IMG/VR virus record: IMGVR_UViG_2713896907_000002
Span: 1-28,746 of that record
Origin: a virus
Lineage: Duplodnaviria > Heunggongvirae > Uroviricota > Caudoviricetes
Strand: one strand, 5' to 3'
DNA: 28,746 nucleotides
Each line of letters starts with the position of its first letter. Position 1 is the stretch's first letter. The position numbers and the translations under genes are program-made. The notes under the pieces were generated by a model. It was not told the origin of the DNA and ran no database searches. It was given only the letters and a program-made list of their open reading frames with translations. Below, piece by piece: positions 1,392 to 27,534 of this stretch.

Positions 1392-1692
1392 GTTTAAATC
1401 TCGTTATTTTGAAAATCTGAACGACGTTACCGCGCGTTTTAATAACCGCAGCAAGCATGACAGCGTTGATAATGACCTCAGATAAATCCACAGCCATTGG
1501 CGTGCGTAACCAGATTGCATAAACAACACGAACTGGAATACTGGCCGCAGCAACAATCAGGAAATAAGCAATCCACCCACCCCATCTTCGGTGTTGGGAT
1601 CCGTTACGCTGGAAAGTGACAACGCGAATTGCTATGCCAGTACAAATAACCGCATTGGTGATCAGCAAAAAAAGCTCATGAGTTACCATCAT
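1381..1692 (-). CDS. Holin-like small membrane protein, 103 aa
   Basis: ATG start preceded by GGGGAG. Two to three predicted transmembrane helices and a charged C-terminus. Its stop overlaps the endolysin start. Confidence 0.6.
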
Positions 1693-2080
1693 CTTTTCTC
1701 CCCGGAATTAACTCGCGTGGATTATCTGAACGGTGATAGAGCCATATACCAATACGCACAGCGACAATTGCTGATACAAATGCACCGGCAGAAAAGACGA
1801 CTCCTTTTTCGAATGATTCCTGCGTGATTGTTGGAATCAGGCTGGCTATGCCGATAAGAATTAATGCTGCTGGCTTGTAGAAAAGAAGACCACATAGAAA
1901 ACTTAGTATCGATAAAAGAACACGACGACGAACAGGATACTCTACCGCTGAGGTAACAAAAATTACCGCGCCCGCTAGTGCACCTAAAGCAACTTCTGGC
2001 GGCACACCAGCGACCACAGACATTAGCGCGCTCATGCTAAGCCCCTGATTCAGCGACCCTATAGTTAATGTGTGCGACAT
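1676..2080 (-). CDS. Second holin/antiholin-like multi-pass membrane protein (about 134 aa from the internal ATG)
   Basis: The track ORF begins at a GTG (2089); the ATG three codons in (2080) has a GGTGG Shine-Dalgarno-like sequence upstream. About four hydrophobic helices; first gene of the lysis cluster. Confidence 0.5.
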   Translation of the reverse strand: MSHTLTIGSLNQGLSMSALMSVVAGVPPEVALGALAGAVIFVTSAVEYPVRRRVLLSILSFLCGLLFYKPAALILIGIASLIPTITQESFEKGVVFSAGAFVSAIVAVRIGIWLYHRSDNPRELIPGRKDDGNS

Positions 2081-2187
2081 AGAGACCACCGTTTAATGTG
2101 CATAAAGTCACCCCCTTAGATGATGAGTCCATTATACACAATAAACCATATTGGGTTCAAAGAATCATAAAAATGCTCTTAACGAAA

Positions 2188-2202
2188 TTACCTTAAAGGT
2201 GA
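2188..2202. promoter_or_regulatory. TTACC-N5-GGTGA near-palindrome (site family member, one mismatch)
   Basis: TTACC TTAAA GGTGA in the divergent intergenic region between the lysis cassette start (2080, minus) and the acyltransferase start (2239, plus). Confidence 0.35.
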
Positions 2203-2238
2203 TATGATAAATAAAATGATTCATGGTAGATATATAAA

Positions 2239-3333
2239 ATGTTCATTACTAACACTGATGTTTTTACCTTTCTTTTCTTAGCTATATCATTAATAGCGGC
2301 TATTTTTGTCAAAAAAATAATCCCATCAACCGTAATAAATGTACATAATGACACAACCTTAGAAGGTTTAAGAGGCATTGCATGCTTATTTGTATTTATA
2401 AATCATGCTTCATATAGCATTCATCACATCGGAATACAAAATTGGCAAATGATGGGTGATTCACCATATACCGGGAGAATGGGAGCTTTCGGAGTGGAGA
2501 TATTTTTCTGTTTGACAGGGTACTTGTTTGCAAAAAAGATTCGCAAAGGAGATATAGACTTGTCATTTTTTGAAAAAAGAATCAGGAGGCTTGCTCCTGC
2601 ATATATATTTGTATCATTTGTAGTTTTTATATATTTCGTATTTATGAACTATAATGTTATTCGTGGTTACTACGATATATCGGCTTTGATCCAACAAATT
2701 TTCGGATTCGGTTTCTTTGGGAATAGAATATCTGTAAACGGTATGGTGGATACATCATTGAATGCTGTTGTGTGGACGCTTCCTTATGAATGGAAGTTTT
2801 ATGCAATAGTCCCCTTCGTAGCGGCTATTTATAAGCTAAGAAGGCCAATCCCTCTACTTATCGCATTTGGAGTAGCGACTGTTTGCATTGACTATTGGTC
2901 GAAAATGTTCTTGTGGGGGTTTTTCGTAACCGGATTCATTGCTTCATTCGTTGGTATTTTAGAAAATAGATATCTTAAGTATATCTCATATTACATAATG
3001 CTATTCCTATTTGCATATGCATTTAAGGGATCATTTGATATTCATGGTTTCCAAATGTTTGTCGTAGTATCTTTATTTTTCATAACATTTATTGCGGCAA
3101 GACCTAAGATATTCTCCATAGGAGTATTTGTTTACCTTGGAACTATAAGCTATAGCATTTATCTACTACATCAGGTAGTTACAACGGTTTTCATGAAATT
3201 AATCTCTGGGGTAATCGATCTACTTACCATAAATATGTATGAATACTTAATGGTCTGCATCATACCAATATCACTTACAATTTACTTATCATCTATTAGT
3301 TACAATAAAATAGAGAAAAAATTCATCAGATAA
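2239..3333 (+). CDS. Acyltransferase family 3 membrane protein (OafA/Oac-like O-antigen acetyltransferase), 364 aa
   Basis: ATG start. About ten hydrophobic helices. N-terminal region LEGLRGIACLFVFINHASY resembles the conserved R/H-containing first-helix motif of acyltransferase-3 proteins. Strongly AT-rich compared with its flanks and on the opposite strand to its neighbours. Confidence 0.8.
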   Translation: MFITNTDVFTFLFLAISLIAAIFVKKIIPSTVINVHNDTTLEGLRGIACLFVFINHASYSIHHIGIQNWQMMGDSPYTGRMGAFGVEIFFCLTGYLFAKKIRKGDIDLSFFEKRIRRLAPAYIFVSFVVFIYFVFMNYNVIRGYYDISALIQQIFGFGFFGNRISVNGMVDTSLNAVVWTLPYEWKFYAIVPFVAAIYKLRRPIPLLIAFGVATVCIDYWSKMFLWGFFVTGFIASFVGILENRYLKYISYYIMLFLFAYAFKGSFDIHGFQMFVVVSLFFITFIAARPKIFSIGVFVYLGTISYSIYLLHQVVTTVFMKLISGVIDLLTINMYEYLMVCIIPISLTIYLSSISYNKIEKKFIR

Positions 3334-3336
3334 ATA

Positions 3337-3368
3337 ATATTGGAGGGTTACTACCTCCAATATGTTTT
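3337..3368. terminator. Bidirectional stem-loop terminator candidate between the convergent acyltransferase and tailspike genes
   Basis: Stem of about 10 bp (3337-3346 / 3354-3363, core TTGGAGG/CCTCCAA) with a 7-nt loop, followed by GTTTT on the plus strand and AT-rich sequence on the minus strand. Confidence 0.45.
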
Positions 3369-3380
3369 GACTGCACTGTT

Positions 3381-5603
3381 TCAGCTGTTCGAGATTTTAC
3401 CAGATATCCTAAATCTTAGCGCTCCAGATTTGATGTAATTGTATGTGAGGAAAGTTCTTGTGCCATCAGATGCCACGGCATAGAACTGAATCTTTGTGAA
3501 GTCTGTAGCTCCTGTAGGAATAAATCCAATAACATCGACAGTTCCTGCTGGTAATGCATTCCCAAGCGCTGTCCTGACCTCTATCTCGCATCCTGCCCCT
3601 GGATAAAAACCAAGCCCTCTGGGAAGGGTGATTGTGATATTTCCTGTACCGCCTGTTGTTCCTGTAACATTTATACTTACATGCAAATCAACATGCTCAC
3701 CATCCCTCCTTGCAGTATATGTGCCAGTTTGTGTTACAGCTGTAGTATCATCGAAACCGATACTTCCAGTTAAGGCCGCATTAACCTGTAGTTCAGATTT
3801 AAATCCGCATATATTATTTCTCCACGGAATCGTTGGTTTATCACCATCCCATGTGATGGGTTGCGATGAAAAATGAGTTATTTTATTACCAAGAAATTTT
3901 AAATTAAACAAGTTGTTATTTATATCGCCAACAAGATAAGCAGCATAAAAAGGTAGCCCTCCCGTAACAACCTGTTCATTGTGAGAAGTTACAACAGCAT
4001 CGTGTATAGTATTGCTGGTTGAGCGAATCACAAACCCATAACCACCATTATCCATCGTTGCGCCAGAATCTGGATCTAATTTTGCAACGCTATCAGCATA
4101 TGGTCTATAAAGTGTATGCCCACCAGATATCAATTCAAAACCGATTAACATTTGCCTGTTAGGATATAAATCATCTGATGTTTTAGGATGTCCCCATGGA
4201 TGAGGATCTACAAGAGTATTCGCTCCGGTACCAGAAATGCGAATGCCTATTGGATAATCTATCGTTATAGGGTTTACAAAATGGCTATCACCAGTGCGAA
4301 TCCACAATCCAACTACCGACTTGCTTTCCCATTTCATAATTCCAAAGCAACTATGCATAATTGCGATTTCATAACCTATTGAAGGAATACCACCAATATC
4401 TGCCCCGCCTCTTAGCATCCCCCACGTTTCCATCTGACCTACCGTAACACCAGCTATATGCGTCATCAGAACACCAATTGCATCAACATGTTGGTAATAT
4501 ACGGTTCCCCAGTCAGTATTCTGCGTATGTCGTATGTGAATTCGTGGAATATAGGTACGCTTATCGCTATATGTGGTCGTTGGTGACATAATGTGATAGA
4601 CAGCCTTATAGCTATTTCCTGCGGCATCTACTGTTTGGAAATCACCAGTTGGATCTGCCCATATAACACCAGTCTGCAATACGCTAAGCCCTGCCAGATG
4701 CTTAATTGATGATTTAACCCGATAGACATTTGGCAGCCAAACTGTTTTGTTATTCTCATAAGCATAGTCATACGCATCCTGAATCATCACAGCCCAGTCA
4801 GTTTCTCCTGGATGATTTGCATAGAACTGCTCAGGTGTAACAAACTGCGAACGCGCAAATAGATCGTTTAAATCTGTTTGCACTGTACCGCTGGACATCG
4901 TGCCTATCAAACAACTTCCTGTTGGCTTCGCTAGTTCTATGAGAACATCAGCAGCAGAACCAGATTCTGGTAGTAGCATGATTGGGTTACCATTATCATC
5001 CATGCCTACAATTTTGTTTTTTCTCAACTCAACTGGTGGTAACTGCGGGATCATTTCTGCCGTGCGTAACGTTCTGCTAAAGAGAAGATCCGTATGCGAA
5101 GTGTTTCCAGCGCTAAGTGAGTCAGCATAATTCTTTGTCGCTGCATCCTGAGGGCGAATAGGGTCTCTTAAGTTTCTAATGTAGTTGTTTAGTGCGTCGT
5201 AATAATTAGCCACGAACGACGGCTTTCGCAGAACAAGGCTAAACCAACTACGCACTTGCTGGATCAGCATCGTCAGCTTATCGAACGCGTCTTCATGCAC
5301 CTCAGCGAAAAACTTTCCCTGATTGCGCAGATCAGTTTCCTGCGTAACCGGTAGCTCTCGTGATATAGAAATCTGATAACCGTTAGCCAACGCCTTCGAC
5401 AGAATTACATTACCGCCGTTATATCCTCCAGCTCCGGTAACTGTATAATCAGTATCAAGAGTCAGCACAGCAATATTTTCGTTAAGGTCAGAGACCTGAA
5501 CAACCAAGTCGGATTTTTTGAAAATACGGAAGGTATACGGAAATGATGTCGTAACGCCGTTACCTGTGTATTCGTTGTGGTCAACTTCGGTTGAGACCGT
5601 CAT
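3381..5603 (-). CDS. Tailspike / tail fiber protein (about 740 aa from the internal ATG)
   Basis: The track ORF starts at TTG (5705); the ATG at 5603 (MTVSTEVDH...) is preceded by GGAG. Large Gly/Thr/Asn-rich protein with beta-rich composition, located next to the host-range/seroconversion genes. Confidence 0.7.
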   Translation of the reverse strand: MTVSTEVDHNEYTGNGVTTSFPYTFRIFKKSDLVVQVSDLNENIAVLTLDTDYTVTGAGGYNGGNVILSKALANGYQISISRELPVTQETDLRNQGKFFAEVHEDAFDKLTMLIQQVRSWFSLVLRKPSFVANYYDALNNYIRNLRDPIRPQDAATKNYADSLSAGNTSHTDLLFSRTLRTAEMIPQLPPVELRKNKIVGMDDNGNPIMLLPESGSAADVLIELAKPTGSCLIGTMSSGTVQTDLNDLFARSQFVTPEQFYANHPGETDWAVMIQDAYDYAYENNKTVWLPNVYRVKSSIKHLAGLSVLQTGVIWADPTGDFQTVDAAGNSYKAVYHIMSPTTTYSDKRTYIPRIHIRHTQNTDWGTVYYQHVDAIGVLMTHIAGVTVGQMETWGMLRGGADIGGIPSIGYEIAIMHSCFGIMKWESKSVVGLWIRTGDSHFVNPITIDYPIGIRISGTGANTLVDPHPWGHPKTSDDLYPNRQMLIGFELISGGHTLYRPYADSVAKLDPDSGATMDNGGYGFVIRSTSNTIHDAVVTSHNEQVVTGGLPFYAAYLVGDINNNLFNLKFLGNKITHFSSQPITWDGDKPTIPWRNNICGFKSELQVNAALTGSIGFDDTTAVTQTGTYTARRDGEHVDLHVSINVTGTTGGTGNITITLPRGLGFYPGAGCEIEVRTALGNALPAGTVDVIGFIPTGATDFTKIQFYAVASDGTRTFLTYNYIKSGALRFRISGKISNS

Positions 5604-5711
5604 GTTAAATCTCCAGATAGTCGCACGCAGCACCCGTTGCGCCGCATATCTGGTTATTCTATTACCCAAAAAACCAGATATGGATAGAATAACTATAAAT
5701 ACCAATAGGTG

Positions 5712-5726
5712 TTACCTTTCAGGTAA
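5712..5726. promoter_or_regulatory. TTACC-N5-GGTAA palindrome (perfect)
   Basis: TTACC TTTCA GGTAA in the divergent intergenic region between the tailspike start (5603, minus) and the 85-aa gene (5803, plus). Identical 15-mer to the site at 24453-24467. A TGTATAAAT extended -10-like element lies at about 5767-5775. Confidence 0.5.
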
Positions 5727-5802
5727 TTTGCATGCCGTGCTGGATAGCAAATAAATCATCTGCTACTGTATAAATATATAGTTATTGCATGGAGAAGATA
5801 AG

Positions 5803-6060
5803 ATGCAGCAGTATCACTATCCACTGGAAGACGGATTTACCGAAAGGATTCACACGCCGGGAGGCGTCAGGTCACTGGTGGAGGGATCGCACTTGATGAA
5901 ATTACTCCGGGATCTCGATAAGGATGGATTTAATGTCGATGGCCCACTTGCCGAACTGACTGCACTGATTAACTACGTCACCAGCTCACAGATGTCTATG
6001 CGGGATCTGCAAACACATCTCGACTATTGTGCCGAACAATTACGAAAACAAACCAGATAA
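5803..6060 (+). CDS. Small protein (85 aa) paralogous to the C-terminal domain of the adjacent antirepressor
   Basis: Track ORF starts at TTG 5785; the ATG at 5803 follows GGAGAAG with a 5-nt spacer. Residues LMKLLRDLDKDGFNVDGPLAELTALINYV...MRDLQTHLDYCAEQ align by eye with LMNLLNQLQEDGHDVSGAAAELTTMFCYI...LRDIQMHAEYINDK of the 231-aa protein, roughly 40 percent identity over about 50 residues. Confidence 0.6.
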   Translation: MQQYHYPLEDGFTERIHTPGGVRSLVEGSHLMKLLRDLDKDGFNVDGPLAELTALINYVTSSQMSMRDLQTHLDYCAEQLRKQTR

Positions 6061-6091
6061 GGTTTGTAATTACCAAATGGAGTGCTTATAT

Positions 6092-6106
6092 TTACCTTTG
6101 CGGTAA
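6092..6106. promoter_or_regulatory. TTACC-N5-GGTAA palindrome (perfect)
   Basis: TTACC TTTGC GGTAA about 30 nt downstream of the 85-aa gene stop and upstream of the structured leader preceding the antirepressor gene. Confidence 0.45.
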
Positions 6107-6133
6107 ATTTACATCGCACTCCTCTTGTGCCAT

Positions 6134-6185
6134 AGTAATCGGGCACTGGCAAAATCCAGTGCCGGGATTGGCGTCCCGGATTACT
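6134..6185 (+). ncRNA. Structured RNA element candidate (multi-stem fold) in the antirepressor leader
   Basis: Outer stem AGTAATC (6134-6140) / GATTACT (6179-6185) enclosing a hairpin GGCACTGG-CAAAAT-CCAGTGCC and an alternative hairpin CCGGGA-TTGGCG-TCCCGG. No ORF of note overlaps on either strand. Confidence 0.3.
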
Positions 6186-6198
6186 AAAAGGCGCATTC

Positions 6199-6218
6199 AC
6201 CGCACAAGCGGTTTTTTT
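6199..6218 (+). terminator. Rho-independent terminator candidate (short stem plus T7 run)
   Basis: ACCGC-ACAA-GCGGT stem-loop followed by TTTTTTT (6212-6218), between the 85-aa gene and the antirepressor gene. Confidence 0.4.
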
Positions 6219-6317
6219 ATGCGTATAGCACGGCCACATTCGTATTATGGTGGGCTGTGTGGGGGCACCGAAAGGTGCGCCGGGTCCTTTTAGCCGGTTA
6301 CGCCAACCCTGCACAGT

Positions 6318-6350
6318 TCACCACCAACCGATTGGCGTCGGTAGTGGTGA
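6318..6350 (+). promoter_or_regulatory. Hairpin immediately upstream of the antirepressor ribosome-binding site
   Basis: TCACCA (6318-6323) pairs with TGGTGA (6345-6350), enclosing CCGA-TTGGCG-TCGG. It shares the 10-nt GATTGGCGTC (6330-6339) with the upstream hairpin at 6166-6175. Lies about 12 nt before the AAGG Shine-Dalgarno of the ATG at 6376. Confidence 0.35.
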
Positions 6351-6375
6351 TTAACCAGACTAAAAGGTAACCACT

Positions 6376-7071
6376 ATGACAGCTACAAAAAGCACGTCCA
6401 TTTTTTCTTTCGAATCCCAAGCCGATATACGAGTAATCGTCATTAATGGTGAGCCATGGTTTATCGCTTCAGATGTTTGTCGGGCTATAGGCATAGCAAA
6501 CCATCGAGATGCTGTTCGAAAACTTGATGATGATGAGAAGGGCGTCGCTTCAACCGACACCCCTGGCGGTGAGCAAGAATCGATCATCATCTCCGAGTCA
6601 GGCCTCTACACACTGATCCTCCGCTGCCGCGATGCGGTGACACCAGGCACTATCCCCTACCGCTTTCGTAAATGGGTTACAGGTGAGGTACTTCCTCAGA
6701 TCCGCCGCACCGGAAGCTACATTAAAAACTCGCTCCCGCAGGAAGAACGGATAAAGATGGTTGCCGACCAGGTAGCCAACGCCACGGCGTCAGCAGTGAT
6801 GCAGGCAATGAAGATAGAGAACAAAACCTACAGTGCCCCGCTGAAGCCCGGATACCGCAGCCTGATTCATTCTCCGTCTGGTGTTCTCGGCCTGACTGAG
6901 AACTCACTTCTGATGAATCTGCTGAACCAGTTACAGGAAGACGGGCACGACGTATCTGGCGCGGCGGCGGAGCTGACCACCATGTTCTGCTACATCGTCG
7001 GTGTGAGCAAATGCCTGCGTGATATCCAGATGCACGCGGAGTACATAAACGACAAGGCAGGGTTCTTCTGA
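6376..7071 (+). CDS. Antirepressor-like protein with N-terminal Bro-N domain, 231 aa
   Basis: ATG start. The N-terminus (FSFESQADIRVIVINGEPWFIASDVCRAIGIANHRDAVRKL) matches the Bro-N / phage antirepressor N-terminal domain pattern. The C-terminal domain is paralogous to the upstream 85-aa protein. Confidence 0.75.
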   Translation: MTATKSTSIFSFESQADIRVIVINGEPWFIASDVCRAIGIANHRDAVRKLDDDEKGVASTDTPGGEQESIIISESGLYTLILRCRDAVTPGTIPYRFRKWVTGEVLPQIRRTGSYIKNSLPQEERIKMVADQVANATASAVMQAMKIENKTYSAPLKPGYRSLIHSPSGVLGLTENSLLMNLLNQLQEDGHDVSGAAAELTTMFCYIVGVSKCLRDIQMHAEYINDKAGFF

Positions 7072-7079
7072 CGGGCGGC

Positions 7080-7098
7080 GGCACAGGGATGTGCCTTT
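7080..7098 (+). terminator. Weak stem-loop terminator candidate after the antirepressor gene
   Basis: GGCACA-GGGA-TGTGCC followed by TTTAAAT; the T-run is short. Confidence 0.3.
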
Positions 7099-7136
7099 AA
7101 ATAATTCTGTACAGATTGCAGGTGAATAGCTTACTA

Positions 7137-7151
7137 TTACCTCACGGGTGA
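7137..7151. promoter_or_regulatory. TTACC-N5-GGTGA near-palindrome (site family member, one mismatch)
   Basis: TTACC TCACG GGTGA about 100 nt upstream of the perfect site at 7238. Confidence 0.3.
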
Positions 7152-7188
7152 TCCATAGCGATTAGGCACCGATACAGGAGGAGCCCAC

Positions 7189-7221
7189 ATGAGAAAATTT
7201 GACGAGTACGAAGGCGTTTAA
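7189..7221 (+). other. Mini-ORF (10 codons, MRKFDEYEGV) with a strong Shine-Dalgarno, possible leader peptide
   Basis: AGGAGGAG (7176-7183), 5-nt spacer, ATG at 7189, stop TAA at 7219-7221. Lies between two palindrome sites upstream of the 211-aa gene. Confidence 0.25.
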
Positions 7222-7237
7222 CATTCGGATAGTTCAT

Positions 7238-7252
7238 TTACCCTAATGGTAA
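7238..7252. promoter_or_regulatory. TTACC-N5-GGTAA palindrome (perfect) overlapping the presumed -35 region of the 211-aa gene promoter
   Basis: TTACC CTAAT GGTAA. A TATATATTAT -10-like block (7273-7282) and GAGGTGA Shine-Dalgarno precede the ATG at 7293. The palindrome centre is about 42 nt upstream of a plausible transcription start. Confidence 0.5.
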
Positions 7253-7292
7253 ATCCCGCTTAAAGAAGCATCTATATATTATGAGGTGATGT

Positions 7293-7928
7293 ATGCCACA
7301 ACAACTGCTGAATCCGGCAAAGGTAACTGAGGTTTTCGCTCATCTGAACGAAACTCCAGACAACCGCGCCCTGTATTCAGAGTTAGTGAACGGCAACGAT
7401 GTCACATCTGATGTCAAAGGCGTTTCTCTGGCTCCTGGATACCGCGTTGTCCGTGTAGACGATCGTAAGAAAGGCGAGATTCCACAGGCGCACTTTGAAC
7501 TGTCATTGATAAATGACCTCACCGAAGAGGTAGTGTATTACAATCGTGTCATTATCCAGCCTGACAGCTATCTTAACTGCCGTCCTGTCACGCAGATATT
7601 GGTATGGAGAACCCAGAAGCCTAAGCATCGTGCTGTGCTTCATGATTTCGCCGGCATCATCTTCATGAACTACCTCTTGGAACGGTACGATATCATCGTG
7701 TCTGATCGCAACCAGACTCATGAAGGCATGTCGTTCTGGCAGGCTCGCATGTATGACGCACTGGAACTTGGCCTCCACCTCTATGGTTACGACATGATGA
7801 CATGCGAGCTGATAGAGATGAATAACGAGGAAGAGCTTGAGAAAGGTGAAACCTGGTTGTGGGGTGATGCGGAAAACTTCCAAAACAGATTGGCCATAAT
7901 TTCAAAGCATAAGCTGCCAATAAAATAG
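7293..7928 (+). CDS. Hypothetical protein, 211 aa (orphan accessory gene with its own regulatory unit and terminator)
   Basis: ATG start with GAGGTGA Shine-Dalgarno. Soluble-looking protein with no motif I recognise. Followed directly by a strong intrinsic terminator. Confidence 0.7.
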   Translation: MPQQLLNPAKVTEVFAHLNETPDNRALYSELVNGNDVTSDVKGVSLAPGYRVVRVDDRKKGEIPQAHFELSLINDLTEEVVYYNRVIIQPDSYLNCRPVTQILVWRTQKPKHRAVLHDFAGIIFMNYLLERYDIIVSDRNQTHEGMSFWQARMYDALELGLHLYGYDMMTCELIEMNNEEELEKGETWLWGDAENFQNRLAIISKHKLPIK

Positions 7929-7935
7929 TTCTTTA

Positions 7936-7958: not shown

Positions 7959-8029
7959 TGGACGAAACGAAAGTCAGTGCTACACTCATTGACGCCACAT
8001 TGAGGTGGCTTATAGATGGAAATTTCACA

Positions 8030-8191
8030 ATGAAAAAAGCATTTGCTGCACTGTTCGTTTTGTTGTCTCTGGTAGCTTCAACTCAGGCCTTTGCCGGTCG
8101 TTGTCAGAACGACAGCGATACTGCTGCTGACGGCTCCCGCTGCGGTGGGCGTTCTGCGGATTCCCGCCCGGGTGGCGGTGGCATTCGTTAA
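8030..8191 (+). CDS. Small secreted protein candidate (53 aa with a signal peptide)
   Basis: From the internal ATG: MKKAFAALFVLLSLVASTQAFA then G, a canonical signal peptide with an A-x-A cleavage site, followed by a Gly/Arg/Ser/Asp-rich tail with two Cys. A TTGACG-N16-TATAGA promoter-like element sits just upstream (7989-8016). Weak Shine-Dalgarno. Confidence 0.35.
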   Translation: MKKAFAALFVLLSLVASTQAFAGRCQNDSDTAADGSRCGGRSADSRPGGGGIR

Positions 8192-8212
8192 AAACAAGGC
8201 CGCGAAAGCGGC
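8190..8212 (-). terminator. Terminator candidate for the minus-strand ejection-protein operon
   Basis: Plus strand shows AAAAA (8190-8194), CAAG, then GCCGC-GAAA-GCGGC (8199-8212). On the minus strand this reads hairpin, CUUG, UUUUU. Confidence 0.4.
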
Positions 8213-8214
8213 AT

Positions 8215-8226
8215 GTGACATGTCAC
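8215..8226. promoter_or_regulatory. 12-bp perfect palindrome GTGACATGTCAC (copy 1 of 2)
   Basis: Perfect inverted repeat between the convergent small ORFs. An identical 12-mer occurs at 27613-27624. Confidence 0.35.
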
Positions 8227-8233
8227 GCTCACG

Positions 8234-8374
8234 TTATGACAAGCCTATGTACCCTGCTACACCAGATAATATCAAAACAACTGCAACAGCAAATTCACCA
8301 TCACCAATGATACATTTACGGTTCATAACGCCAAGTGCAACAAGCGCAAACACAACAAGAATAAAAGCAATCAT
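8234..8374 (-). CDS. Small hydrophobic membrane peptide candidate, 46 aa, last gene of the ejection-protein operon
   Basis: Not in the ORF track (below 60 aa). ATG at 8372-8374 is preceded by AAGGA with a 6-nt spacer, directly after the TAA stop of the 824-aa gene. Sequence MIAFILVVFALVALGVMNRKCIIGDGEFAVAVVLILSGVAGYIGLS predicts two transmembrane helices. Confidence 0.4.
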   Translation of the reverse strand: MIAFILVVFALVALGVMNRKCIIGDGEFAVAVVLILSGVAGYIGLS

Positions 8375-8383
8375 TTCTCATCC

Positions 8384-10858
8384 TTATTGCGGAGTGACAT
8401 CCTGAGGTCGCCACCAGTATGTCTGGTTAAACTCTTTCTTCGAACGTTGCTCCATTTTACGCAAATAGCCTGGTGAAAAATACTCCTGCATCTGGTTAAA
8501 GATCATGTGATCGAGAGCCGCCTTCAAGTACCAGAGATTCGCACCTGGCATCAGCCCCTTCCCCAGCTTAACCAGATCACCACCAGTCTGCTCGTTCTTC
8601 CCTTCCACAGCATTTAGAGGTATGCCCTGAGCTATCTTCACTACGTCATCAACCAGACCAGCTACCGGGCCAAGCATCGACGCCAGCGCGCCACTCCCGT
8701 ACCTAGTGTGGTCAGAGAAAAGAAAATCACCGTACAACCCAGCCCCACCACCTTTTAAAAATGCATTTATCCAGAATTTAACCATGTGGTCACCGGTCAT
8801 TTCCTTTGGATTTCTCCCATTAATAAGATCAGTAATCTGCATGGAAAGAGCACCAAGCATGGTTGTGCTTGCTAAAAACGTTGCTATATATGCTGCACGC
8901 CCACCAGCAGACGGCATACCCATAGCGCGTGACCAGTGACGCATAACAACCGAGATAGGGAACGATTTAAACAGGAAAACACTTCTCGTTAATTCACCTT
9001 TCCATGTTCCACGCTGAAGACCAGACCCTACGAACATCTGTTCACGTGCGCCCGGTGTAATAACAGCCATATCAACTTCTTCAGTTACAGCACCGAGCAG
9101 TTTACGCATTGCCTCAAATTTCACGCGTTCAGGCTCACCAAGATGTTTAACTGCTGAATCAGGGATACGCATAATGCTTTCCGGTGTCAGCATCGTATTA
9201 TTACCGTTCCCCCAGTCCTCCTGTTGCGCCAGCTTCCATACGCTCCAGTCTGTGTCAGTAATCCCTTTGCTTTTCAGGATACGAAAATCAGAGTCATCGA
9301 GGCTATGAAGGTCTGGTGTCCGTGACACTACTTCTCCCAGGCTTCCCATCATGGTTACGCCATAGGCGCGCTTGTGCGCATCTGACCATGCTGTAAGCCC
9401 ACTGGCACGCATTACGGCCGTTGCCGCCCAACGAGACACTGACGGCCCCATATTATCCATCGCCCAGCGGTTAACGCTGCCAAGTAGAGATTCCATCGCC
9501 AGACCAGCGCGGCGCGCCCGCGCAAGTTCTGTACGGTTCGTTGGGTCCATAGCTTCAAGCTGGTTGCGGAATAACTGGTTCATTGGAAGGTTGGTAACCT
9601 TCGCAGACAGATACATGGTTCCAAGATCAGAGAACGATGACAGCAACGCTGATCCGAGTCTGCTGGCAACCAGCCAGTTGCGGATATTGTCAGACCATCG
9701 CGCGATGTGCGGATTCGCTACAGGCTGTGTCTTTCCGGAAATAAAGTTGTACAGATTCTCTGTGTTGTTCGCCAGCCGCTCGACTTTACCGGTTTTACTC
9801 GGGTTAGCTGTTGCCGTTTCTGCCTTAACCTGATCAAGAAGGGAGCGGAAAACATGATCGGGGTTTGGGCCATATGTTTCCACCAGTGCAATATCTTTAC
9901 TGATACCTTCCAGGTGACCGACCATGATTTCCCATAGAGAGCGATCGCCATAAAGTTGCTGATATTGCAGATAGGAATCTGCATCTTTGAAATGTATCTG
10001 TCGTGATGCATTACCACGGTTAGCACGTGCGCCGGAAATTCGCATTCCGGTATCAGTAAGCTTATTCAGCCCACCAGTAGCGATCGTGTTATAAGCCTCT
10101 CCAAGAAATGCAGACAACTCGGCATCGTTCATCAGTTGTCCATCGGCTCGGGTATAATATTTGCGATCCAGCTTACCTATAACATCGCTAACCCATTTAT
10201 CTTTTGATACCGCCCCAACCTTTTCCATAGAATGATGTTGAGGGATTCCCCAGTTTTCGAGATAGCCAATGTCCCCACCAGCATCATTAAACCGGCGGCG
10301 GAGTAGATCTGTCACTTCTCTCCACGCCTTAGCACCTTTTCTTGCTTTAGCATTGCCAGTATTTTGCCCTCGCATTTCATATACCAGGTCACGCACGCCC
10401 GCTTCATCTTCAAACAGGCCAAAAAAGCGAGGATCAACTGCTTCGAATGCCTCCTGCAATTGACTCAATGCATAATCACGAGTGGCTTTTGTTCTGGACT
10501 CAACAGAGAGGAAATTCGATTTACCGTCTGCATTAAAAGCAATAGTACGGTTAAGAGCGCCAAGTTTCCCATCAGCCCCTTGATAGCTATTGATAAATTT
10601 ATCCAATCTCTGACGTGCGGCTATAGTGAGAGCCACACGACGTTTCTTTAATGCCGCTTCTCGCTGTAATTCTTCAGATGCCAATTGTGCTGCACGATAT
10701 AGCCGCTCTGATTCGGAAAGTTGTCTCCACGACATCGGGTCATTACGAGCAATGGAGCGCATATTTCGATAAATGCGGTCTTCAATGTTCTGTATTTCTC
10801 GCGCCGTTAACGTGCGCTGCGCCGCCTGCTGGACCGCTTGTATACATTCCTGTCTCAT
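8384..10858 (-). CDS. Large internal virion / ejection protein candidate, 824 aa
   Basis: ATG start. Third of three consecutive large proteins downstream of the tail tubular genes, the same position and size class as T7 gp15/gp16-type core proteins. Translationally contiguous with neighbours. Confidence 0.55.
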   Translation of the reverse strand: MRQECIQAVQQAAQRTLTAREIQNIEDRIYRNMRSIARNDPMSWRQLSESERLYRAAQLASEELQREAALKKRRVALTIAARQRLDKFINSYQGADGKLGALNRTIAFNADGKSNFLSVESRTKATRDYALSQLQEAFEAVDPRFFGLFEDEAGVRDLVYEMRGQNTGNAKARKGAKAWREVTDLLRRRFNDAGGDIGYLENWGIPQHHSMEKVGAVSKDKWVSDVIGKLDRKYYTRADGQLMNDAELSAFLGEAYNTIATGGLNKLTDTGMRISGARANRGNASRQIHFKDADSYLQYQQLYGDRSLWEIMVGHLEGISKDIALVETYGPNPDHVFRSLLDQVKAETATANPSKTGKVERLANNTENLYNFISGKTQPVANPHIARWSDNIRNWLVASRLGSALLSSFSDLGTMYLSAKVTNLPMNQLFRNQLEAMDPTNRTELARARRAGLAMESLLGSVNRWAMDNMGPSVSRWAATAVMRASGLTAWSDAHKRAYGVTMMGSLGEVVSRTPDLHSLDDSDFRILKSKGITDTDWSVWKLAQQEDWGNGNNTMLTPESIMRIPDSAVKHLGEPERVKFEAMRKLLGAVTEEVDMAVITPGAREQMFVGSGLQRGTWKGELTRSVFLFKSFPISVVMRHWSRAMGMPSAGGRAAYIATFLASTTMLGALSMQITDLINGRNPKEMTGDHMVKFWINAFLKGGGAGLYGDFLFSDHTRYGSGALASMLGPVAGLVDDVVKIAQGIPLNAVEGKNEQTGGDLVKLGKGLMPGANLWYLKAALDHMIFNQMQEYFSPGYLRKMEQRSKKEFNQTYWWRPQDVTPQ

Positions 10859-24362: not shown

Positions 24363-24452
24363 ATCAATGACTCCGTACGCAATTAAATTATTACCAATTT
24401 AACCATATATGATTTATTTATCGTAGACAGTTGACATTTAACGCACGAATTA

Positions 24453-24467
24453 TTACCTTTCAGGTAA
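24453..24467. promoter_or_regulatory. TTACC-N5-GGTAA palindrome (perfect)
   Basis: TTACC TTTCA GGTAA, about 100 nt upstream of the portal-side operon start (minus) and upstream of the tRNA island (plus). A TTGACA hexamer lies at 24431-24436. Confidence 0.5.
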
Positions 24468-27519: not shown

Positions 27520-27534
27520 TTACCGTTGTGGTAA
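27520..27534. promoter_or_regulatory. TTACC-N5-GGTAA palindrome (perfect) immediately upstream of the terminase small-subunit start
   Basis: TTACC GTTGT GGTAA, with an extra GGTAA half-site at 27512-27516. Centre is about 25 nt upstream of the ATG at 27502. Confidence 0.45.

Follow-up and report, generated by a model that had tools for sequence, protein, structure and literature searches.

The window, by which we mean the whole stretch of 28,746 nt analysed here, has the backbone of a phiV10/epsilon15-like Uetakevirus prophage of E. coli. Between the lysis cassette (holin/endolysin/Rz) and the tailspike gene we found an ORF of 364 aa with an ATG start that lies antisense to both neighbours, as the preliminary description of this DNA had stated. 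The genes, domains and exchanged block of the locus are the following:

1676..2089, minus strand: gene for a Phage_holin_8 membrane protein (PF16931, E = 3e-12), gene 1 of the lysis cassette, corresponding to phiV10 p27.
2239..3333, plus strand: gene for an AT3-only membrane O-acyltransferase (PF01757, phrog_3333, conserved AT3 residues).
3381..5603, minus strand: tailspike gene, 740 aa, whose real start is the ATG at 5603 and not an upstream TTG.
3381..4901, minus strand: receptor-binding/enzymatic domain of the tailspike, aa 235-740, part of the exchanged cassette.
4902..5603, minus strand: N-terminal virion-adaptor domain of the tailspike, which belongs to the backbone and not to the cassette.
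2209..4944, unstranded: block replaced relative to phiV10, delimited by a gap in blastn homology and made up of the acyltransferase gene, a hairpin and the receptor-binding domain of the tailspike.

Assignment of the ORF product to the acyltransferase-3 (AT3) family, proposed in the preliminary description, was borne out by a match of 99.7 bits to PF01757 (Acyl_transf_3; E = 2.2e-28, gathering cut-off 31 bits), in which residues 41-350 covered positions 4-324 of the 326 positions of the model, and by a match to phrog_3333, 'O-acetyltransferase' (E = 8.9e-41). NCBIfam held no family for the protein, the PADLOC defence profiles gave no match, a sequence search of the PDB returned nothing meaningful, and a scan of positions 1500-6500 against Rfam found nothing within 2081-3380. 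Four features are invariant or essential in characterised carbohydrate acetyltransferases, namely R/K-X10-H, FFXISG, RXXR and a glycine in TMH6 (Pearson et al., PMC7448272), and the window protein has all of them. Its conserved residues are R45-X10-H56, F89/F90/G94, R114/R116/R117, W179, E184, G232, Y308 and H311. In an alignment of 14 sequences that included Sf6 Oac, Sf101 OacB and phiV10 Oac, the TMH1 residues R45 and H56, 11 residues apart, were invariant, as were F89 and G94 of the FFXISG-type motif, which here reads FFCLTG (89-94). In a second set of 60 homologues H56 was again invariant and R45 was conserved in at least 90%. The RXXR motif is RIRR at 114-117; its R114 and R117 were invariant in both alignments, and it aligns with KRARR of Sf6 Oac. 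The TMH6 glycine is G232, likewise invariant in the two alignments. The counterparts in OafA are the catalytic H25, F41 and G46 of TMH2, and R69/R72 of the TMH3 RXXR (PMC7448272). The spacing between H56 and F89 is 33 residues compared with 16 in OafA, and a long TMH1-2 loop replaces the GG-F/Y-XGV-D motif. The protein consists of a single Pfam domain, ends at residue 364 just past the last core helix, and has neither an SGNH domain nor a C-terminal 11th helix. It is therefore AT3-only, so that of the earlier label 'OafA/Oac-like' we keep the Oac half; the other half does not apply, OafA being an AT3-SGNH fusion.

An AlphaFold2 (AF2) model of the acyltransferase was all-helical (pLDDT 90.5, pTM 0.89), with helices consistent with the 10-TMH core plus one extra N-terminal helix and with a structured loop at 137-179. 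The extra transmembrane helix, residues 5-27, is common to OacB and all close homologues and is absent from Sf6 Oac and phiV10 Oac. We know of no AT3 structure that has been solved. A Foldseek search of the PDB with the model returned nothing significant; its weak neighbours were human HGSNAT, an acetyl-CoA transmembrane transferase, with probabilities of 0.35-0.60, TM scores of 0.36-0.42 and E above 0.1. This weak likeness fits the TmAT superfamily as proposed in PMC12423673.

Among 50,697 phage records and 5,426 complete E. coli genomes we found no near-identical DNA of the acyltransferase gene, and only 127 bp of upstream backbone matched; a more distant DNA search gave partial relatives at 66-72% identity. 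Three independent E. coli assemblies encode exactly the same protein (100% identity), and in them ppk-ppx and a MASE1/EAL gene adjoin the integrated prophage. Lysogens include the strains of GCA_019368345.1, GCA_040721795.1 and GCA_020416765.1. The ORF was intact in every copy compared, and comparison with L003, an E. coli prophage, revealed purifying selection (dN 0.072, dS 0.794, dN/dS about 0.09). All in all, the gene is an intact AT3-only O-acyltransferase, a new allele of a well-known class that leaves the established mechanism unchallenged.

The regions on either side of the gene contain the following sites:

2131..2160, minus strand: promoter-like site TTGAAC-18-TATAAT facing the lysis genes (10/12 in the consensus scan).
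2144..2157: second palindrome, AACCATATTGGGTT, which overlaps the promoter-like site at 2131-2160 and is kept in 5/5 aligned Uetakevirus loci.
2179..2208, plus strand: candidate sigma-70 promoter for the acyltransferase gene, with -35 TTAACG, an 18-nt spacer and a TG-extended -10 TATGAT, 31 nt before the ATG.
2188..2202, unstranded: palindrome-family site TTACCTTAAAGGTGA of the TTACC-N5-GGTRA family, a candidate operator in the promoter spacer.
3337..3363, unstranded: bidirectional hairpin resembling an intrinsic terminator, with a 10-bp stem, a 7-nt loop and T-rich tails on both strands.

Up to about position 2208 the window shares a conserved intergenic region with phiV10 and L003, and the candidate promoter (9/12 plus TG in the consensus scan) is kept both in L003 (TTAACC ... 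TGATATAAT) and in phiV10. Consensus matches were not enriched over shuffled sequences (6 versus 7.4 expected), so it is position and conservation that argue for this candidate. No clear Shine-Dalgarno sequence precedes the acyltransferase ATG. The preliminary description had placed a palindrome-family site upstream of the gene and a bidirectional hairpin downstream, and both were confirmed. Counting the upstream site, the window has 7 distinct TTACC-N5-GGTRA sites (12 strand matches versus 0.08 expected). The family is also represented upstream of the tailspike gene and close to the antirepressor region, and a copy occupies the equivalent position upstream of phiV10 oac (L002, 2772-2786). Because this palindromic candidate operator sits in the promoter spacer, expression of the acyltransferase in a lysogen is not guaranteed. 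The AACCATATATGGTT-like family gave 6 matches versus 1.33 expected. The vB_EcoP_ZX5 paper reports nothing on palindromes or operators. The free energy of folding of the hairpin was -19.1 kcal/mol (z = -4.8) on one strand and -16.0 kcal/mol (z = -4.5) on the other, values reached by 0/200 shuffled sequences. Related loci have their own hairpin, of different sequence, at the same place between the two genes, and in Sf6 a terminator is annotated at this position.

The tailspike gene, convergent with the acyltransferase gene, is a composite. Its adaptor domain is 80% identical in amino acid sequence to the N-terminus of the phiV10 tail fiber, and beyond aa 234 the two proteins are unrelated. An AF2 model of the receptor-binding domain (pLDDT 88.8) folded into a right-handed beta-helix followed by a C-terminal beta-sandwich; its best PDB matches were the Det7 gp208, HK620, CBA120 TSP2, Sf6 and P22 tailspikes, followed by capsule depolymerases. 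By sequence, the domain is 35-38% identical to tailspikes of Kuttervirus, which are O-antigen-specific. The beta-helix model and these matches indicate a glycan-cleaving tailspike, and its most likely target is the O-antigen; the capsule depolymerases among the fold matches mean that the fold does not separate O-antigen from capsule as target. The same receptor-binding domain was found on three different adaptor types. Three phages carry a related receptor-binding domain with no acyltransferase beside it; at least two of them look non-temperate, and two have replication or helicase genes next to the tailspike gene. Absence of the acyltransferase from such phages fits an accessory gene of lysogeny.

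We then considered how the gene reached its present position. The preliminary description had judged it AT-rich relative to its flanks, and in sliding windows of 1095 nt the acyltransferase gene turned out to be the lowest-GC segment of the 28.7 kb, its GC content of 0.331 lying about 3.7 sd under the window average of 0.487 (sd 0.042). Its GC3 of 0.318 is matched by that of the tailspike receptor-binding domain (0.312), and the backbone genes range from 0.41 to 0.59. Blastn homology to phiV10 was confined to 156-2208 and 4945-7082. Compared with L003, the acyltransferase gene and the receptor-binding domain showed 84.7% and 84.3% nucleotide identity (90% amino acid identity for the latter), whereas the flanking backbone was more diverged (70-79%), with 70-77% for the holin genes, the tailspike N-terminus and orf5785. 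The backbone of the window is nearer to that of phiV10, with up to 94-99% identity. Equal divergence of the two parts, below that of their flanks, indicates that they moved together at shallow depth. In the closest comparisons the exchanged unit is the acyltransferase gene plus the receptor-binding domain of the tailspike, and not the acyltransferase gene alone. Of the separate horizontal acquisition proposed earlier, the exchange stands, with homology breaking at 2208/4945; its restriction to the acyltransferase gene does not, since the block 2209-4944 includes the receptor-binding domain.

The low GC could also stem only from amino acid composition, Phe, Ile, Leu, Tyr, Lys and Asn being abundant in so hydrophobic a membrane protein, rather than from a foreign origin. 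The window protein is indeed extremely hydrophobic, and every phage AT3 gene examined had a GC content of 0.29 to 0.34, whatever the phage. We nevertheless regard this explanation as quite improbable: GC3 is lowered as well, the soluble receptor-binding domain shares the bias, phiV10 homology breaks exactly at the two ends of the block, and the cassette is shared with L003 while the backbone is nearer to phiV10.

Several attributes of a moron were found, including a statistically supported terminator hairpin, a promoter given only as a conserved consensus match, the GC deviation of -3.7 sd and the absence of AT3 from phiv142-3, where a different small ORF fills the slot. The exchanged unit also takes in the receptor-binding domain of the tailspike, which qualifies the use of that term. 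Strict co-inheritance of the two parts was rejected as a general rule. Co-variation of acyltransferase and receptor-binding domain was weak across 13 loci (Mantel r = 0.26, p = 0.08), and two of the loci are counter-examples: in L014 a receptor-binding domain of 76% identity is paired with an unrelated AT3, and in L005 an acyltransferase of 62% identity stands beside a receptor-binding domain of 27% identity. At greater divergence the two parts reassort.

The arrangement of the gene pair is retained more widely. In 8/8 distinct prophage contexts sampled, the AT3 subfamily to which the window protein belongs lies tail-to-tail with a tailspike gene, on four backbone types (podovirus-, siphovirus-, myovirus- and P22-like). 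In E. coli these contexts comprised homologues of 87% and 51% identity in the Uetakevirus slot, one of 42% on a P22-like backbone and one of about 33% on a siphovirus-like backbone. The remaining homologues came from Citrobacter (62%, siphovirus-like), Proteus (43%), Salmonella (42%) and Hafnia (38%, myovirus-like). Other AT3 lineages have the same convergent geometry in Sf6, Sf101, L014 and BTP1. An origin of the subfamily in chromosomal O-antigen clusters found no support, every sampled context being a prophage.

By analogy with characterised systems, we consider it likely that the product of this gene, an AT3-only O-acyltransferase, modifies the glycan that the neighbouring tailspike recognises, leading to serotype conversion, superinfection exclusion and protection from the phage's own tailspike. 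Acylation of the receptor glycan is supported by the parallel with the phiV10 slot, the gene geometry in Sf6, Sf101 and BTP1, the 8/8 pairing with tailspike genes and the presence of the identical gene in integrated prophages. The acyl donor, the acceptor sugar and the position modified on it, expression in the lysogen and the exclusion phenotype are what we infer. In the proposed mechanism, the acyltransferase gene would have a promoter of its own, run antisense to the late operon and be shielded from it by the bidirectional terminator. Acetyl-CoA would enter a cytoplasm-facing cavity lined by R45, R114 and R117, as in the models for Oac and OafB, and H56, close to the periplasmic face, would present the acyl group for transfer to a hydroxyl on a sugar of a surface polysaccharide, most likely the O-antigen repeat unit. 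This polysaccharide would be the same one that the adjacent beta-helix tailspike binds and cleaves, and once acylated it would be a poor substrate and receptor. A lysogen would then change its serotype, resist superinfection by the same and related phages, and be protected from the tailspikes released by spontaneous induction.

The substrate might instead be another envelope glycan, such as group 1/4 capsule or K antigen, colanic acid, ECA or peptidoglycan, with the tailspike acting as a capsule depolymerase. The AT3 family also has members that acylate capsule, ECA, peptidoglycan or secondary metabolites, and AT3-only proteins acting on other envelope glycans, WecH and IcaC among them, are on record (PMC9558356); capsule-modifying prophage acetyltransferases have been reported too (PMC13123978, PMC13228068). 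Among the fold matches of our tailspike are the Phi92 colanidase and capsule depolymerases of Acinetobacter and Klebsiella, and the profile phrog_6117, 'colanic acid degradation', was matched weakly. This alternative seems to us unlikely, however, because the top structural matches are the O-antigen tailspikes listed above, the receptor-binding domain is related in sequence to Kuttervirus tailspikes, the characterised members of this backbone, phiV10 and epsilon15, use O-antigen (PMC9558356), and the nearest characterised enzyme, OacB, acts on O-antigen rhamnose.

The role for which the gene is selected may differ from exclusion of incoming phage: it could mainly protect the lysogen's own O-antigen from the tailspikes of spontaneously induced siblings, or provide immune or serotype variation that benefits the host. 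In BTP1, a convergent AT3-family acetyltransferase is needed for long O-antigen, and deletion of the tailspike restores the phenotype (PMC4413052). Furthermore, two Citrobacter genomes (L006 and L008) keep an intact acyltransferase gene beside a tailspike gene that is IS-separated or fragmented, which suggests a benefit to the host independent of a working phage. On the other side, the demonstrated phenotype of the phiV10 gene in the same slot is exclusion (PMC11854483). We hold such a main role to be somewhat unlikely, although by no means negligible, and it does not compete with superinfection exclusion at the level of biochemistry, which is identical. It appears highly improbable that the gene is now functionless, a decaying or silent passenger. 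Its weak ribosome-binding site and a promoter seen only as a consensus match would agree with decay, but the ORF is intact in every copy, evolves under purifying selection, keeps all its catalytic motifs and encodes the same protein in independent isolates.

If acylation of the tailspike receptor is correct, E. coli lysogens of this phage would carry an O-acylated surface glycan, and with it altered serology and phage susceptibility, that is invisible in the O-antigen gene cluster, a matter of relevance for in-silico serotyping, for phage therapy and host-range prediction, and for the design of glycoconjugate vaccines. The tail-to-tail rule also offers a practical way to pair a receptor-binding protein with the modification that blocks it. 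What goes beyond textbook serotype conversion is that acyltransferase and receptor-binding domain were exchanged as a block and that the promoter may contain an operator. Tentatively, and as a rather doubtful extension, the AT3 subfamily with the extra N-terminal helix might, instead of being a constitutive moron that stands alone, form half of a selected, linked 'receptor key plus receptor lock' module that moves between backbones as a block, its promoter wired in through TTACC-N5-GGTRA operators, so that a phage regulator would switch masking in step with tailspike and lysis expression.

Among known systems, Sf6 Oac (OacA) is the archetypal AT3-only serotype converter and has the same layout of own promoter, shared terminator and convergent tailspike gene. 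Its essential residues R73/R75/R76 align with R114/R116/R117 of the window protein; it differs in its length (333 aa), in the lack of the extra N-terminal helix, in its P22-like backbone and in an identity of about 24% in the alignment. Epsilon15 belongs to the same phage lineage as the window, and its conversion genes presumably sit next to the tailspike gene in the corresponding variable region. Those genes (Kropinski et al. 2007, cited in PMC9558356) likewise alter the O-antigen receptor; they are proposed to do so by inhibiting host O-acetylation and changing the polymerase linkage, with no acyl group added. The Salmonella prophage BTP1 encodes a rhamnose acetyltransferase of the GtrC(BTP1)/OafB type, convergent with the tailspike gene, that shields the O-antigen from the phage's own endorhamnosidase (PMC4413052). 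That enzyme is of the fused AT3-SGNH type and possesses an 11th C-terminal helix as well as a periplasmic SGNH domain, unlike the window protein, which has no SGNH domain.

The closest characterised homologue is OacB of Sf101, with 27-28% identity over about 350 aa (E about 1e-19 to 1e-21). It is also AT3-only, has the extra N-terminal hydrophobic segment and is convergent with a tailspike gene, although it resides on a P22-like backbone beside the integrase. OacB carries out 3/4-O-acetylation of O-antigen rhamnose; given the low identity, the acceptor sugar is not transferable by homology. The closest system in position is phiV10 Oac (PhiV10p26), from the same genus, whose gene fills the same slot, flanked by the genes for the Phage_holin_8 protein and the tail fiber/tailspike, and has the same antisense orientation. 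Its gene shares the conserved upstream region with the palindrome site, the AT3-only architecture and a low GC content (0.31), and is annotated as 'acetylates the host O-antigen; functions in superinfection immunity', the antigen being O157; its characterisation is credited to Perry et al. 2009 (cited in PMC9558356). Orthology with this enzyme was considered and rejected, as BLASTP detected no similarity between the two proteins (E = 0.52). They share 19% identity in the multiple alignment, in which only the AT3 motifs align; in addition, phiV10 Oac is devoid of the extra N-terminal helix and its partner receptor-binding domain is unrelated. Judged from these comparisons, the window gene and phiV10 oac are positional analogues drawn from different AT3 lineages.

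The 15-bp palindrome TTACC-N5-GGTRA, whose family has the core TTACCT-N3-AGGTAA, was found at seven distinct sites in the window, compared with 0.08 matches expected, and most of these sites were intergenic:

TTACC-N5-GGTRA motif matches: 2188-2202, 5712-5726, 6092-6106, 7137-7151, 7238-7252, 24453-24467 and 27520-27534

At three places (2144-2202, 5672-5726 and 24401-24467) a AACCATATATGGTT-like palindrome was located ~40-50 bp from a member of the family. Analysis of phiV10, a related phage with a characterised oac in the same slot, showed that copies are kept both upstream of oac and upstream of the tail fiber gene. The sites probably serve as an operator set for some phage regulator.

Two further arrangements look regulatory, and comprise the following features:

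2131-2160, minus strand, sigma-70-like site TTGAAC-18-TATAAT (score 10/12), directed at the lysis cassette
6130-6182, plus strand, c4-a1b1 target, Rfam match
6143-6218, plus strand, isrK, Rfam match (76.9 bits)
6243-6328, plus strand, C4 antisense RNA, Rfam match (77.7 bits)

The spacer of the sigma-70-like site contains the conserved palindrome AACCATATTGGGTT. Because the bidirectional terminator at 3337-3363 is predicted to halt late transcripts arriving from the tailspike gene, the lysis genes may require a separate promoter at 2131-2160. The Rfam matches (6130-6328, plus strand) lie directly upstream of a Bro-N antirepressor ORF (6376-7071), and together they look like a P1/P7-type antisense-RNA immunity module adjoining the tailspike gene.

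Comparison with related prophages pointed to a further variable region beyond the antirepressor. In L027 and L028, two near-identical E. coli prophages, positions 6074-7302, the counterpart of ~7230-7930 in the window, contain a DUF4760 gene together with a transposase of the IS3 family (HTH_Tnp_1/rve); in the window and in L029, a third such prophage, this position is occupied by a 211-aa ORF (7293-7928). By this comparison, the region ~7230-7930 is a second variable accessory slot, across the antirepressor from the first. Homology of the window to phiV10, to L027-L029 (otherwise 99% identical) and to L003, an E. coli prophage with close relatives of the acyltransferase and the receptor-binding domain, begins at 155-156 in all of them, and bases 1-154 showed no homology in any. 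Matches in complete E. coli genomes begin at 79-82. The junction, as aligned, differs in the window isolate.

The receptor-binding domain (3381-4901, minus strand) recurs at 67-90% identity on at least three adaptor types among proteins P0068-P0109, namely the Uetakevirus N-terminus, PF09008 (P22 head-binding) and PF18668 (Tail_spike_N). A remoter clade, at 35-39% identity, is found in Kuttervirus phages having multiple tailspikes.

An intact 62%-identical acyltransferase (gene at 8001-9149) is present in two Citrobacter freundii chromosomes, L006 and L008, where it seems to outlast the phage; this persistence hints at a benefit for the host. In L008 an IS (rve transposase) lies between the acyltransferase and the tailspike gene, and in L006 only fragments were called in the tailspike region.

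At the N-terminus of the window acyltransferase (protein residues 1-38, window 2239-2355), an additional transmembrane helix (residues 5-27) precedes the canonical AT3 TMH1 and implies a predicted topology of 11 helices with a periplasmic N-terminus. This extra helix is conserved in the subfamily and is present in Sf101 OacB, in contrast to Sf6 Oac and phiV10 Oac, which lack it.
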